A model generated the notes under the pieces. The model was not told the DNA's origin and made no database searches. It saw only the letters and a program-made list of their open reading frames with translations. Positions 17,205 through 22,655 of a stretch of DNA of 64,000 nucleotides are shown in pieces. The translations under genes and the position numbers were made by a program. How positions within the stretch are numbered: position 1 is the stretch's first letter; each line of letters opens with the position of its first letter. This stretch comes from an uncultured Haloferula sp. (lineage in GTDB: Bacteria > Verrucomicrobiota > Verrucomicrobiia > Verrucomicrobiales > Akkermansiaceae). The stretch spans positions 1 to 64,000 of the forward strand of contig CBFGTS010000003.1 in the NCBI GenBank assembly GCA_965652295.1, given 5' to 3'.

Positions 17205-17298
17205 GCGCGAAACATACGCGGTCACGGATTTGAAACAATCACGACCTTCGATCCGTGCTTGGCCCTTGGCATTGGTGCTGCTCATCCTATACCCGAAC

Positions 17299-17598
17299 AT
17301 GCCTGCGAAAAAATCGACCAAGAAGACGGCCAAAAAGGTCGCCAAGAAGGCCCCCGCCAAGAAATCCGTGGCCAAGGCCGCGAAGAAAGCGGTCGCCAGG
17401 AAAGCGCCGGCGACCAGGACAGCTGTGAAAAAAACAGCGAACCCCGGGCCCGCTCCCGCCTCCCCGGCCGCAAACCCGCCGAGCCAACAGGACCTGGAGG
17501 TGGCCGCCTACTACAACTATCTCGAACGCTCACGCAACGGCTCGCCCGGCAGCACGTGGTCGGATTGGATCGAGGCGGTCGATCAACTTGGAGCCTGA
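17299..17598 (+). CDS. Histone H1-like Lys/Ala-rich protein with C-terminal DUF2934-like domain
   Basis: AKK/PAKK repeats followed by LEVAAYYNY..R...G......DW.EA..QL. Confidence 0.75.
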   Translation: MPAKKSTKKTAKKVAKKAPAKKSVAKAAKKAVARKAPATRTAVKKTANPGPAPASPAANPPSQQDLEVAAYYNYLERSRNGSPGSTWSDWIEAVDQLGA

Positions 17599-19021: not shown

Positions 19022-19567
19022 GTGAAAACTCTACCGTCTTCCTCCCCGTCGCTCGCGCTGCTCGCCCCACTCGTCGGGCTGACTGTGGCGGACCCCTTGC
19101 TCGCCGCCGGTTACATCAAGATCGGCGACATCAAAGGCGAGTCCACCGACTCCTCCCACAAGGACTGGAGCGATATTTCCAGCATGTCCTGGGGCATTCG
19201 TTGCGAGGTGGATCCCGCCACCGGTACCAGCACCGGTCAGCTCAAGATCGAAGAAGTCACCTTCAGCAAATACATCGACAAATCGAGCCCGATTCTGATG
19301 CTCCACGCCTGCGCCGGAAGTCCGGATATCGGCGATCTGACGATGACCTTCAACGATCCCAACCGAAACGGCGGGGACGACTACATCAAGATCACCTTCT
19401 TCAAGGTCGAGATCTCCGGCTACGCTTCGTCGATGAGCGAGGGAGAACCCGTGCCGACCGAGTCGGTCTCGCTCAACTTCTCCAAGATTACCTTCGAGTA
19501 TCAGCCGGCCGACGGCAGCGAGCCGATCGTCCAGACCCGCGATTTCACCTCCTCCGACGGCAGCTGA
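19022..19567 (+). CDS. Hcp (type VI secretion tube)-family protein with N-terminal signal peptide
   Basis: ~28-aa leader then YIKIGDIKGESTDSSHKDW, KYIDKSSPILM..C.G, PTESVSLNFSKITFEYQP. Confidence 0.88.
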   Translation: MKTLPSSSPSLALLAPLVGLTVADPLLAAGYIKIGDIKGESTDSSHKDWSDISSMSWGIRCEVDPATGTSTGQLKIEEVTFSKYIDKSSPILMLHACAGSPDIGDLTMTFNDPNRNGGDDYIKITFFKVEISGYASSMSEGEPVPTESVSLNFSKITFEYQPADGSEPIVQTRDFTSSDGS

Positions 19568-19574
19568 AGCCCCC

Positions 19575-20402
19575 ATGAACACGCTCCTGCGCATCGTGGC
19601 GACGGCGATCCTCGCCACCACAGCCGCCTCCGCCGAGCTCCTCGCCTGGCTCCATTTCGGCGAGACGATTCCCGGCGACTCCTCCGCTCCCGGCCGCGAG
19701 GGCTGGACGGACGTCACCGGCGTCGGCTTCGTGCAAACAGACGGAAGCCGCAAGCTCCGCTTCCGCTGTCAGGTGGACAAGGCGACACCCTTGCTGATGA
19801 ACGCCTGCTGCAGCGGGTCGGCCATCGACGAGGTAAAGCTCGACCTCGTGCGCTCGGGCGGAGAGTTCTGGCAAGTTCGGCTACGCCACGTCGAGGTGAC
19901 CGCCTTCGAGATCGGACACTCGCCCGACCTCCCGCAACCCCACACCACCGTCGAGCTGTCGTGGAAAAGCCTCGTTTCCTCCTACTTTGTCCGCCCACCC
20001 GACGAGCCGCCCTACCCGATCAGCACCCTCATTTCGGTCGATACGGACGGCGACGGCCTCCCCGATGCCTATGAGGAACAGGCCGGACTCGACCCCTCCG
20101 TCAGCAACCTCGACACGGACAGCGACAACGACGATCTGCCGGACATCGATGAATATCGCCTCGGCACCCACCCCAACGACCCCGGTTCTTTTTTCCGCGT
20201 CACCGCCACCGGCGAGGGCGACACACTCGAAATCGTCTGGCCCAGCGTCGCGGGGAAAACCTACAGCATCGACTTCAGTCCCGATCTCCTGACCCCCTTC
20301 GAGTCGCTGGACGAGGTCACCGCGACCGGTCCGGAAACCCGCAGATCGATCACGCGGGTTTCCTCCGCCGCCTTCTTCCGCGTCAGCGAGAATCCTCCGT
20401 AA
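19575..20402 (+). CDS. Exported protein: divergent Hcp-like domain, TSP3-like Ca-binding repeats, Verrucomicrobia-type C-terminal domain
   Basis: Signal peptide ending ASA; IPGDS...GW.DV, VDKATPLLM.ACCSG..I.EV; DTDGDGLPDAYE and DSDNDDLPDIDEYRLGTHP; WPSV.GKTY....S.DL...FFRV. Confidence 0.75.
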   Translation: MNTLLRIVATAILATTAASAELLAWLHFGETIPGDSSAPGREGWTDVTGVGFVQTDGSRKLRFRCQVDKATPLLMNACCSGSAIDEVKLDLVRSGGEFWQVRLRHVEVTAFEIGHSPDLPQPHTTVELSWKSLVSSYFVRPPDEPPYPISTLISVDTDGDGLPDAYEEQAGLDPSVSNLDTDSDNDDLPDIDEYRLGTHPNDPGSFFRVTATGEGDTLEIVWPSVAGKTYSIDFSPDLLTPFESLDEVTATGPETRRSITRVSSAAFFRVSENPP

Positions 20403-20408
20403 CCGCCC

Positions 20409-21857
20409 GTGTTTCCCGAAAACGCCGACGACGATTGGAACCCGCAGCCGCTGCTCCAGGCACTCGCCGCGGCCGGCTACCACGCGAGCAACTTCCGCCC
20501 CGCCGATCGGGACGGCGGTTCCTATGTAGCGAAGAAACCGTCGCTCCCGCTCGATCACGCGCTTCAACTCTTCGCCTACGGCCACGAACTTCCCGAGGCT
20601 GCGGTGCGGTCGGTGCTCGATGGATCGACCGACCCCCTGCTTGAGCTCGGCCTGCTGGTGCGGGAGTCCGGCGGCCTCCGCTCCGCCGTGCGGCTCGATC
20701 CCGATGGCGATAGCGTCTTCGCCTCCGACCATCCGGATCGGCTGGCGACGAAAGCAGGCGACTTCACCATGGGCATCGGCCGCAGCACACGTCTCCTCAC
20801 CGCTCTCGCCCCCACCCATCCCGGTCTCCGTACCCTCGATCTGTGCACCGGCGCCGGCTGGATCGCGCTGCGCCTGGCGGAAGCCGGCTGCACGGTGACC
20901 GCCACCGACCTCTCGCCACGCGCGCTCGCCTTCGCCCGATTCAACGCCCGCCTCGCCGGTTGCGAGGAGATCGAATTTCTCCAGGGGAGCGGCCTCGCCC
21001 CGGTGGAAGGACGCCGCTTTGACCTCATCCTCGCCAATCCCCCGTTCGTCATTTCGCCCGAGTCCACCTACACCTTCCGCGATTCTGGAACGGCGGGCAC
21101 CTCGTTCTGCGAATCGCTGGCCCGACGCCTGCCCGACCATCTGGCGGATGACGGTCTCGCGATCATGCTCCTAAGCTGGTTCGACGATGGCAACGAGGCG
21201 CGCGCCGAGGGCCCGCTGGATTGGCTCGAATCTCATCCAGACTGCGGCCGCTGGCTTTTCCGCAACGTCACCCAGAGCCCCGAAGAATATGCCGCGCAGT
21301 GGCTCAAGGACTCCGCGGCCGGGCAAGCCCCGGCACCCGCCGACCTGCGGCGCTGGACCGACCATTTCCACTCGATCGGTGCCGCCCGGCTGCACACCGG
21401 TTTCCTCGTCGTCCACCGTGGCACCGGTCCCGGCTGGACGCGCTCCGACGCCCGCAGGATCGACCACATTTCCAAGCATGCCGGCGGGGACATCCGGCGG
21501 GTCGTCGAGGGCGAAAGCTGGCTCGCCCGCCACCGGCCCAGCATCGACACGCTGCTCGAAACCCACTTCGGCGTGCCGGACGGTCTCCGGACCGAATCCG
21601 TGGCCACCTTGGAGGACGACTGGAGACCGCTCTCGATCCGGCTTATCAGCCCCGCGCGCCTCGCCTACGATGGCAACGTGGATGCCCACCTTCTCGATCT
21701 CCTGGCCCGCTGCCGCCGCGGCGAGCCGCCTTCCACCGTGCTTTCCAGCATTGCCGCTGCCCCGCAGCTGCCCGCACCGGAAGACCTGCGCGAACGCCTG
21801 GCCGGACTGATCCGCGAGCTGATCCGGCACGGGCTGCTCCTTCCGCCCGCCGCTTGA
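20409..21857 (+). CDS. Class I SAM-dependent methyltransferase (HemK/PrmC-like NPPF type, extended)
   Basis: LDLCTGAG motif I, FDLILANPPF motif IV. Confidence 0.82.
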   Translation: MFPENADDDWNPQPLLQALAAAGYHASNFRPADRDGGSYVAKKPSLPLDHALQLFAYGHELPEAAVRSVLDGSTDPLLELGLLVRESGGLRSAVRLDPDGDSVFASDHPDRLATKAGDFTMGIGRSTRLLTALAPTHPGLRTLDLCTGAGWIALRLAEAGCTVTATDLSPRALAFARFNARLAGCEEIEFLQGSGLAPVEGRRFDLILANPPFVISPESTYTFRDSGTAGTSFCESLARRLPDHLADDGLAIMLLSWFDDGNEARAEGPLDWLESHPDCGRWLFRNVTQSPEEYAAQWLKDSAAGQAPAPADLRRWTDHFHSIGAARLHTGFLVVHRGTGPGWTRSDARRIDHISKHAGGDIRRVVEGESWLARHRPSIDTLLETHFGVPDGLRTESVATLEDDWRPLSIRLISPARLAYDGNVDAHLLDLLARCRRGEPPSTVLSSIAAAPQLPAPEDLRERLAGLIRELIRHGLLLPPAA

Positions 21858-21887: not shown

Positions 21888-22655
21888 ATGAACTGGCTCG
21901 CCCCCTTCCTTCTCGCCTCGATTTCGTCCATGGCCGCCGTGGTGGAGACGAGCGTCGACTATGAGCATGAGGGAACCACGCTTGAGGGGTTCCATGCCTA
22001 CGACGACTCCTTTGAAGGCGTTCGCCCCGGAATCCTGATCGTTCATCAGTGGACCGGACTCACGGACTACGAAAAAGACCGCGCCCGCCAGCTCGCGGAG
22101 ATGGGCTACAACGTGTTTGCCGCCGACATCTACGGCAAAGCGATTCGCCCCGGCCCACCGGCCGCCGGCGAGTATGCGGGAAGATACAAAAACAACCGCG
22201 GACTGTATCGCGACCGGCTCAAGGCGGGCCTGGATGTGCTGCTGAATGACGAGCGGACCGATGCCGCCAAGGTCGCTGCCATCGGCTACTGCTTCGGCGG
22301 CACCGGCGTGCTCGAACTGGCCCGCAGCGGTGCCGACATCGCGGGTGTCGTCTCATTCCACGGCGGGCTCGACGCGACCGAGGGCATGGCCGCGGAAGCC
22401 GGGACGCTGAAAGCCAAGATCCTCGTCTGCCATGGGGCGGCCGATCCGCACGTCTCCGCCGAGGAGGTGGGTGCGTTCCATGCGGAAATGAAGGAGGCCG
22501 AAGCCGACTGGCTGATGGTCTCCTATGGAAATGCCGTGCATGCTTTCACCCAACCCGGCGCGGGCGATGATCCCTCGAAGGGTGCCGCCTACAACCCGAC
22601 CGCCGACTGCCGTTCATGGCAGCACATGAAGGATTTCTTTGCGGAAATCTTCTGA
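21888..22655 (+). CDS. Dienelactone hydrolase family protein (exported)
   Basis: HQWTGL, GYCFGG nucleophile motif, SFHGGL, HAFT. Confidence 0.9.
   Translation: MNWLAPFLLASISSMAAVVETSVDYEHEGTTLEGFHAYDDSFEGVRPGILIVHQWTGLTDYEKDRARQLAEMGYNVFAADIYGKAIRPGPPAAGEYAGRYKNNRGLYRDRLKAGLDVLLNDERTDAAKVAAIGYCFGGTGVLELARSGADIAGVVSFHGGLDATEGMAAEAGTLKAKILVCHGAADPHVSAEEVGAFHAEMKEAEADWLMVSYGNAVHAFTQPGAGDDPSKGAAYNPTADCRSWQHMKDFFAEIF

Follow-up and report, generated by a model that had tools for sequence, protein, structure and literature searches.

Three consecutive genes lie together in the DNA analyzed here, a stretch of 64,000 nucleotides from an uncultured Haloferula sp. (hereafter the window). Two of them, hcpA and hcpB, are on the same strand with a spacing of 7 bp and encode leader-bearing proteins of the Hcp family; the third, a methyltransferase gene that begins 6 bp after hcpB, belongs to the hcpA-hcpB unit and was overlooked in the original prediction made for this DNA. 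The gene coordinates, the 7-bp gap, the Hcp motifs and both leaders given in that prediction were all reproduced in the sequence, and its central observation, two tandem leader-bearing Hcps with T6SS genes absent, was confirmed. The two short gaps are the sole pointer to a possible co-transcription of the three genes: a scan of the locus returned no promoters and two terminator-like sites on the minus strand, which is the level expected by chance. The nearest named homologues of the pair are from Luteolibacter, and in all 24 Hcp-Hcp pairs compared the small Hcp was encoded upstream and the fusion Hcp downstream. Features of the locus are collected in Table 1.

Table 1. Genes, domains and motifs of the hcpA-hcpB-methyltransferase locus, with positions in the window
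Feature	Position	Strand	Description
hcpA	19022..19567	+	181 aa, GTG start; one Hcp domain preceded by a leader; proposed major subunit of the ring
hcpA leader	19022..19108	+	28-29 aa, Sec-type, with S-x-x-L-A-L-x-x-P motif; putative cleavage site
hcpB	19575..20402	+	275 aa; signal peptide, diverged Hcp, acidic Ca-type repeats and C-terminal module; proposed minor subunit/adaptor
hcpB signal peptide	19575..19634	+	Ends in AASA; assigned from sequence
hcpB Hcp domain	19635..20039	+	Ring-stacking beta2-beta3 loop reduced to 6 residues
hcpB TSP3-like repeats	20040..20186	+	Two D-x-D-x-D-G repeats; putative Ca binding
hcpB C-terminal module	20187..20399	+	Generic verrucomicrobial, Fn3-like beta-sandwich; candidate sorting/anchoring tag
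methyltransferase gene	20409..21857	+	482 aa, SAM-dependent; DUF7059, MTS with NPPF, DUF7782; PqqD/RRE-like C-terminal domain; third gene of the unit

The assignment of both proteins to the Hcp family was examined by profile and structure searches. HcpA and HcpB matched PF05638 with 101.4 and 46.6 bits, respectively (cut-off 23.5), and stayed under the TIGR03344 cut-off of 58.9, with scores of 54.7 and 26.6. AlphaFold models of the mature proteins had pLDDT values of 94 for HcpA and 86 for HcpB. The HcpA model matched 1y12 (Hcp1) with an E-value of 1.8e-15 and a TM-score of 0.82, the structure search with the models of the pair also retrieved 8yun (E 1.4e-10, target TM 0.78), and the HcpB model matched 3v4h with a Z-score of 19.3 and an rmsd of 2.3 (127 aligned). 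By Pfam score and predicted fold, HcpA and HcpB are thus both true members of the family. Absence of an Hcp fold in the second protein had been named beforehand as an outcome that would speak against the original prediction; the profile score and the Z-score of HcpB point to its presence. About 25 full-length homologues of HcpB were found. Deep nodes of a quick Hcp tree were weakly supported, and the order of events could not be inferred from it.

Hcp serves as the marker of T6SS, and the one role generally ascribed to it is that of a tube assembled in the cytoplasm. The source genome is 98.1% complete in 35 contigs, and a PF05638 profile search of it found no Hcp besides hcpA and hcpB. Searches for TssC (PF05943, the sheath family covered), TssF (PF05947), TssM (PF06761) and the VgrG-type/PAAR families PF05954, PF04717 and PF05488 returned no matches in this genome, with positive controls matching in every case. 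The lack of T6SS genes, originally noted for the 64 kb, thus holds genome-wide for these six families, and export through a T6SS encoded elsewhere, for which the check proposed had been a search for tssB/C/M and vgrG, found no support. In sum, the genome yielded no TssC sheath, VgrG/PAAR spike, TssF baseplate, TssM or leaderless Hcp, and the blanks for PF05954, PF04717 and PF05488 likewise gave no sign of an eCIS or phage-tail cluster. A search for the gp19-type tube family PF06841 carries no weight, its positive control being silent as well. As for T9SS cargo, no Por_Secre_tail C-terminal domain was matched at E 0.1 in Pfam or NCBIfam; PF14349 (the SprA/Sov translocon) was blank in the genome, but its positive control was silent too.

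The same question was addressed in 61 related genomes, of which 24 contained Hcp (63 matches, all read, with leaders classed by eye) and 9 contained TssC. Eight leaderless Hcps sit about 0.5 kb from a tssC match and one further leaderless copy (L142) belongs to a TssC-positive genome; one match, in G060, is a fragment and was left unclassed. By contrast, 15 of the 20 genomes with leader-bearing Hcps were devoid of TssC matches, including four assembled in a single contig (G003, G017, G041 and G045), versus five with TssC. These distributions support, at the level of gene content, an exported Hcp pair that would be independent of T6SS.

Leaders were judged by their hydrophobicity, A-x-A endings and conservation, and the export signals are thus predicted ones. 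The leader of HcpB is plainly hydrophobic, and its homologues retain a hydrophobic leader with an A-x-A end. That of HcpA is less typical, yet its S-x-x-L-A-L-x-x-P motif is present in the 12 of 12 orthologues linked to the methyltransferase, among which each invariant position is encoded by four different synonymous codons, and a stricter version of the pattern matched only HcpA among the 32,338 ORFs of the genome. In pattern and conservation, both leaders would fit Sec/SPase I substrates, with an n-h-c arrangement and small residues at -3/-1. A translation start past the leader, the outcome originally named as fatal to that reading, has a candidate in HcpA, where an in-frame TTG at codon 26 could yield a leaderless product; this position is unconserved among orthologues. 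Because the motif is kept despite synonymous codon change and the alternative start is not, the HcpA leader appears to be real and its bypass through TTG is disfavoured. Named genomes, most of them Pseudomonas, supplied 80 control loci, and in 78 of these an ATG lies one codon ahead of the Hcp domain. The other two comprise a pair from Luteolibacter (L077) and an Hcp from Mycobacteriales whose long leader is Tat-like (L070); a TssC profile search of the latter genome found no match.

Leader-bearing Hcps appear, from sequence, to be a wide class that extends beyond these related genomes: among the best 150 of 5,489 matches, a ranking that favours multi-domain and leader-bearing proteins, 85 of 97 single-domain Hcps carry a hydrophobic leader that is 15 aa or longer, one of these 85 being a tagged construct. 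In the same best 150, tandem Hcp domains within one chain numbered exactly six in 18 proteins, whereas four, five and seven domains were found in 3, 1 and 1, respectively. Nine of the 18 six-domain chains bear a planctomycete-type LExR-L leader and several bear Ig, Calx-beta or dockerin domains. The Hcp ring has six members. Since the single-chain relatives peak at this ring number, a ring is very likely the working form of the exported class. Modelled as six chains, four HcpA and two HcpB domains scored 0.68, versus 0.41 for the best of three controls; retaining HcpB and swapping HcpA out gave 0.41. Of 157 solved pairs, 116 attained the mark set for this complex score, as did 2 of 215 mismatched ones; the alignments used here lie outside this calibration. 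Runs of the model agreed in at least 92% of contacts, with a partner pLDDT of at least 83 and each HcpB flanked by HcpA. The score of 0.68 indicates that HcpA and HcpB are compatible in a predicted ring, not that they bind, and may reflect recall of solved Hcp hexamers. With this qualification, it favours the division of labour originally suggested, in which the small protein would be the major and the fusion the minor subunit of rings that both can share.

The part of HcpB that follows its Hcp domain was compared with the rest of the source genome. The two acidic D-x-D-x-D repeats previously noticed in HcpB were seen again; they resemble TSP3_bac (PF18884; E 2.7e-4, under the cut-off), and their Asp positions are invariant across 24 HcpB homologues. 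The final 72 residues of 13 fusions served as seed for an HMM that grew in five iterations from 16 to 92 matches without converging. It found 86 matches in the source genome, of which 78 lie no more than 15 aa from a C-terminus. The proteins carrying them are mostly long with signal-like N-termini, and many are very large with LamG, Fn3 and similar domains. The Ca-loop and C-terminal module appear, then, to be a generic tail borne by about 80 secreted proteins of this genome. The C-terminal module matched no family in Pfam or NCBIfam and falls in unnamed Verrucomicrobiota clusters at 0.91-0.94; a structure search with its model matched Fn3-type chains with middling Z-scores of 7.5-8.2. A special Ca-dependent cap function of HcpB was considered and rejected, the tail being generic (78 of 86 matches C-terminal). 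HcpB is better read as an adaptor carrying an address tag, with a putative sorting or anchoring role for the module itself.

The neighbourhoods of exported Hcps point in the same direction. Forty loci with flanks were compared, two G010 loci cut by contig ends being excluded. In 29, a small Hcp is followed by an Hcp fusion, and in 10 the partner is an upstream gene encoding a signal peptide, an unrelated domain, TSP3 repeats and the generic tail. The N-terminal domain of these X-type partners was not Hcp by HMM and had no match in Pfam families or in the Atlas. The remaining locus (L265) has neither type of partner and shows a PEP-CTERM-like gene 440 bp upstream. The tail HMM scored in a neighbour gene at 37 of the 40 loci; the neighbours of L141 and L257 scored lower than the reversed-sequence control and are not included in the 37. 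With some 80 of several thousand genes tailed, such adjacency would be far above chance, although the loci are kin. That the tail-less Hcp keeps a tailed partner even when the first domain of the partner differs suggests that it is this tail the small Hcp requires. The source genome contains four secretin genes, whose products are possible exits for tailed proteins.

In 12 of the 12 loci having the S-x-x-L-A-L-x-x-P leader, the methyltransferase gene comes after the pair; it is missing from the other 21 loci (12 pairs and 9 of X-type), none of which has that leader. It follows from these 21 loci that the methyltransferase is not essential to the exported-Hcp class. Genes upstream of the 12 linked loci vary while the pair and the enzyme are constant; these loci make up one clade and do not represent independent events. 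Among the 61 related genomes the enzyme was found in 13, namely 12 with the pair (in G010, across a contig break) and G023, where it lies directly after a homoserine dehydrogenase gene without the pair and two other Hcps are encoded. The G023 enzyme nests among pair-linked ones, in a group with L116, L120 and L127 having an SH-aLRT of 100, which suggests that G023 lost the pair. In a phylum sample, the methyltransferase was present in 2 of 301 genomes.

Outside this sample, 79 metagenome loci were derived from the best 80 of 519 distant homologues, several of the loci being interrelated. An Hcp lies within 4 kb of the methyltransferase in 19 of the 79, versus about 0.1 expected by chance in those 477 kb on a rough background from other taxa, and six of them abut the enzyme gene. 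An Hcp, another T6SS gene or a tube protein of the gp19 type with a Tat leader was found in 34 of the 79 loci, and no tube or T6SS gene in the other 45, many of which are short; Tat-leader gp19 tube proteins adjoin members of the enzyme family in 5 loci. A Clp ATPase encoded beside distant methyltransferases is presumably TssH. Most Hcps beside the distant enzymes have no leader, so recognition of a leader is not general in the family. The closest structures in a profile search were GenN (E 2e-32) and AerE (7RC2-6, E 3e-18), the latter described, in the accessible part of PMC9060474, as an Asn side-chain N-methyltransferase acting on a ribosomal peptide. PF05402 (PqqD) was found in 15 of 24 homologous C-terminal domains and was absent from that of the window's own enzyme; the two top PDB matches are PqqD with E-values of 0.18-0.21. 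Close to the C-terminus, 20 of 26 linked versus 6 of 41 unlinked Hcps share an Asp (D174 in HcpA); as this comparison was made post hoc between related proteins, at a place where they align poorly, D174 is taken as a mere lead to a possible methyl acceptor. The simplest reading is that the family is predicted to methylate tube-fold proteins.

These observations can be arranged into a mechanism in which the products of the three genes would give rise to an exported Hcp ring in the absence of an injection machine, a proposal that, taken whole, we consider to have an even chance of being right. HcpA and HcpB would very probably cross the inner membrane, each through its Sec-type signal peptide. 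Both would quite probably fold in the periplasm and form hexameric rings there, and it is reasonably likely that these rings would be mixed, HcpA being the principal subunit and HcpB the minor one. The short stacking loop of HcpB would restrict the product to a ring or short stack. By a narrow preference, the tag-less HcpA would reach or stay on the cell surface by riding with the Ca-loop and C-terminal module of HcpB. The ring would display or carry a ligand and not be fired; for this surface function, ligand display or carriage is our best guess, by analogy with the cargo binding by Hcp rings described in the accessible part of 10.1101/2025.01.09.632221. Finally, in a step to which we give slightly less than even chances, the cytoplasmic NPPF methyltransferase would N-methylate an Hcp precursor before export, and its PqqD-like domain may, in this clade only, grip the S-x-x-L-A-L-x-x-P leader.

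What the ring builds, and where, admits other answers, and the beta2-beta3 loop bears on the first of them. Stacked HcpA rings could form a long surface nanotube or pilus, a hollow filament begun or ended by a tail-anchored ring containing HcpB. The loop makes ring-to-ring contacts in phage tail tubes, according to the accessible part of PMC8718954, and it is near full length in HcpA (19 aa versus 20-24 in 15 T6SS-type Hcps) while six residues are left in HcpB; an HcpA tube capped with HcpB may therefore be envisaged. The constant order of major and minor genes in 24 of 24 pairs and the Tat-leader gp19 tube proteins near related methyltransferases in 5 loci also suit a filament, as do HCP- and gp19-domain proteins reported in the extracellular proteome of Accumulibacter granules (10.1101/2024.11.06.622250), a source whose accessible part states no link to signal peptides. 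Against it, the loop has only 10-15 residues in 4 of 12 HcpA orthologues, single chains of six domains with large Ig, Calx or dockerin extensions better suit one ring, and Hcp polymerisation requires a tail tip complex according to the review PMC8718954 (accessible part), none of which was found in this genome. Shortening of the loop is in any case not a rule for fusions: it has nine residues or fewer in 9 of 12 clade fusions, and the other three, together with most of 17 other fusions, retain 12-24. We regard the filament as unlikely, if the strongest of the alternatives. Thus, of the ring, nanotube or pilus into which the Hcp fold was first supposed to be rerouted, the ring has gained ground through the six-domain relatives and the mixed model, whereas tube and pilus have lost it through the short loops of HcpB and of 4 of 12 HcpA orthologues. 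A more elaborate version, for which the chances seem smaller still, is a Sec-exported, methylated tail-tube pilus: HcpA would be a RiPP-like precursor with a leader that an RRE N-methyltransferase grips before it acts as a signal peptide, and a hollow surface tube of mature subunits would be nucleated and anchored by the HcpB ring via its tag. If this were true, the locus would represent one branch of a set of cross-phylum exported tube-fold appendages (Sec-Hcp, Tat-Hcp, Tat-gp19 and single-chain six-Hcp), and its enzyme family would be the first of tube-protein methyltransferases, acting in some true T6SSs too.

Returning to the exported ring, its destination and the unity of the locus can likewise be disputed. 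T6SS Hcp chaperones its effectors, and hexamers might remain between the membranes as carriers or chaperones of a protein or small cargo held in the lumen, with the tail only stabilising or tethering them. Sec alone delivers only to the periplasm, no recurring dedicated outer-membrane gene lies near the pairs, and minor Hcp heterohexamers of Bacteroidales recognise cargo according to the accessible part of 10.1101/2025.01.09.632221 (PDB 9vnd is among the structure matches). This periplasmic carrier is nonetheless improbable, given that the generic tail ends many very large, extracellular-looking LamG/Fn3 secreted proteins, that a leader-bearing Hcp occurs in a Mycobacteriales genome (L070) without a Gram-negative periplasm, and that the cassette has no recurring cargo gene. 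The genes might also be independent neighbours, with separate homo-rings and a methyltransferase that is merely inherited synteny; such a view could draw on the single clade formed by all 12 linked loci, on the pair-less enzyme gene after homoserine dehydrogenase in G023 and on the poor resolution of the deep Hcp tree. It sits badly, and we hold it to be quite improbable, with a pair and enzyme that stay joined while upstream genes differ, with a G023 enzyme nested among linked ones, which suggests pair loss in a genome that has two other Hcps, and with distant homologues that abut Hcp genes in 6 loci. The most conventional explanation, an ordinary orphan T6SS Hcp with a mis-called start that is exported by a T6SS elsewhere or is decaying, could invoke the TTG at codon 26 of HcpA, a draft genome of 35 contigs and the TssC of 5 of 20 genomes with leader-bearing Hcps, but is largely refuted, and in our estimation very improbable indeed, in view of a leader conserved at protein level, six blank T6SS family searches at 98% completeness, four single-contig genomes that have pairs and no TssC, and the plain signal peptide and secreted-protein tail of hcpB.

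A wide class of leader-bearing Hcps without an injection machine would amount to a second job for the Hcp fold, and Hcp matches in genomes or secretomes would then over-call T6SS. HcpA, being small and soluble, could serve as a reporter to test whether the uncatalogued C-terminal module of verrucomicrobial proteins is a secretion or anchoring signal. It is also a candidate substrate for the unstudied DUF7059/DUF7782 methyltransferases, which occur in T6SS clusters as well, so that methylation of tube proteins becomes directly testable. The literature searched, which comprised few subscription papers and no supplements, held no description of an Hcp with a signal peptide, of the C-terminal module of HcpB or of Hcp methylation.

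By the tests run, the fold at this locus is known, whereas the system fits none of the families tested, being a member of Hcp and not T6SS, eCIS or T9SS cargo. It shares with the T6SS Hcp/TssD (PF05638, TIGR03344; P. aeruginosa Hcp1, 1Y12) the family, the fold (TM 0.82) and the predicted side-by-side contacts of the ring. Unlike it, the proteins described here have signal peptides, a fusion to a secreted-protein tail and scores below the TIGR03344 cut-off, and their genome has no detected sheath, baseplate, spike or membrane complex. Phage tails and eCIS assemble on a baseplate within the cytoplasm, and lysis sets them free. Their tubes (gp19, PVC, pyocin) belong to a common fold family with the pair (Z 8-10), which differs in its Sec route and in the lack of baseplate or spike genes among those found here. 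The T9SS C-terminal domain of Bacteroidota is a small beta-sandwich that forms the extreme C-terminus of many unrelated proteins with signal peptides, and the HcpB module is likewise a small beta-sandwich that terminates many such proteins; by contrast to the former, it matches no Pfam or NCBIfam model, and four secretin genes are present in the genome. With the minor Hcp heterohexamers of Bacteroidales, as far as the accessible part of 10.1101/2025.01.09.632221 describes them (9VND), the pair has in common adjacent diverged Hcp genes and the logic of a mixed hexamer with major and minor subunits; those minor Hcps are cytoplasmic T6SS parts that load effectors, whereas here there are two leaders, no T6SS and no recurring effector gene. 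Lastly, the AerE/GenN/PrmC class (7RC2-6, 5U18; PMC9060474, in its accessible part) contains the best structural relatives of the third gene, with which it shares the NPPF motif, and from which the enzyme is set apart by an extra PqqD-like C-terminal domain and by linkage to Hcp and gp19 instead of to a proteusin or aminoglycoside cluster.

The Hcp pair of the window lies between a homoserine dehydrogenase gene and the methyltransferase gene. In comparison genome G023 the methyltransferase directly follows the same dehydrogenase gene on its 3' side, and the pair is cleanly absent. A dienelactone-hydrolase-family gene occurs near the cassette in 5 of the 12 loci of the clade, once on the opposite side. 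The C-terminal module of hcpB is not confined to the cassette: about 80 long secreted-type proteins of the host genome end in this uncatalogued 65-aa module, often preceded by TSP3-like repeats, and two more proteins carrying it are encoded on the window's contig, outside the window.

Exported Hcp proteins were also found with other partners. In a second type (loci L114, L131-L137, L141 and L267), the upstream partner carries, in place of Hcp, a ca. 110-aa N-terminal domain that found no match in Pfam or Atlas, followed by TSP3 repeats and the hcpB-type C-terminal module. At L265, in genome G195, an exported Hcp lacks a tailed partner; 440 bp to its 5' side, in the same orientation, lies a gene recognised by eye as PEP-CTERM-like. 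Among the best 150 of 5,489 Hcp matches, 18 natural proteins contain exactly six tandem Hcp domains in one chain (P0060, P0062-P0064, P0066-P0071, P0075, P0079, P0085, P0091, P0095, P0103, P0106 and P0118) and probably represent pre-linked rings. Half of them bear the planctomycete-type leader LExR-L, and some carry Ig, Calx-beta or dockerin domains. Another match from the protein library, the 440-aa P0147, is a synthetic construct: its sequence ends in a thrombin site, a His tag and a Strep tag.

Coordinates of features discussed in the text
Location	Feature	Context
window 17230-17598	small Lys/Ala-rich, histone-like putative ORF	just 5' of homoserine dehydrogenase gene
window 21888-22655	dienelactone-hydrolase-family gene, signal-like N-terminus	30 bp 3' of methyltransferase
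G023:C22:253322-256200 (L144)	homoserine dehydrogenase-methyltransferase junction	
L265:3261-5013	exported Hcp with PEP-CTERM-like gene 5' of it	genome G195
L070:4812-5393	Hcp behind long twin-arginine-like leader	Mycobacteriales genome
L229:5107-6171	gp19-type protein	by methyltransferase
L213:5521-6570	gp19-type protein	by methyltransferase
L231:4495-5586	gp19-type protein	by methyltransferase
L232:3701-4813	gp19-type protein	by methyltransferase
L202:2-289	gp19-type protein	by methyltransferase

Genes of the DUF7059/DUF7782 methyltransferase family also adjoin genes for ca. 340-aa proteins that combine a twin-arginine-like leader with a match to PF06841 (T4 gp19 tail-tube), and these would constitute a second tube fold with predicted export. 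At L195, L202, L206, L212 and L244, with the methyltransferase alongside, a leaderless Hcp gene lies directly 3' of a partner gene whose product has a twin-arginine-like leader and weakly matches the dirigent/allene-oxide-cyclase barrel (E 0.002). No T6SS genes were seen in these five loci, and piggy-back export of Hcp via Tat is possible. The barrel partner, with its leader, was seen alone at L208 and L217. The Mycobacteriales genome with a leader-bearing Hcp yielded no TssC match.

The methyltransferase was, in addition, found within or adjoining apparent T6SS clusters in 12 loci (L179, L180, L181, L214, L216, L220-L222, L230, L235, L237 and L252), whose genes include those for TssA, TssB, TssC, TagJ, TssL and a Clp ATPase. 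This placement makes the enzyme a candidate for an unrecognised T6SS accessory enzyme.
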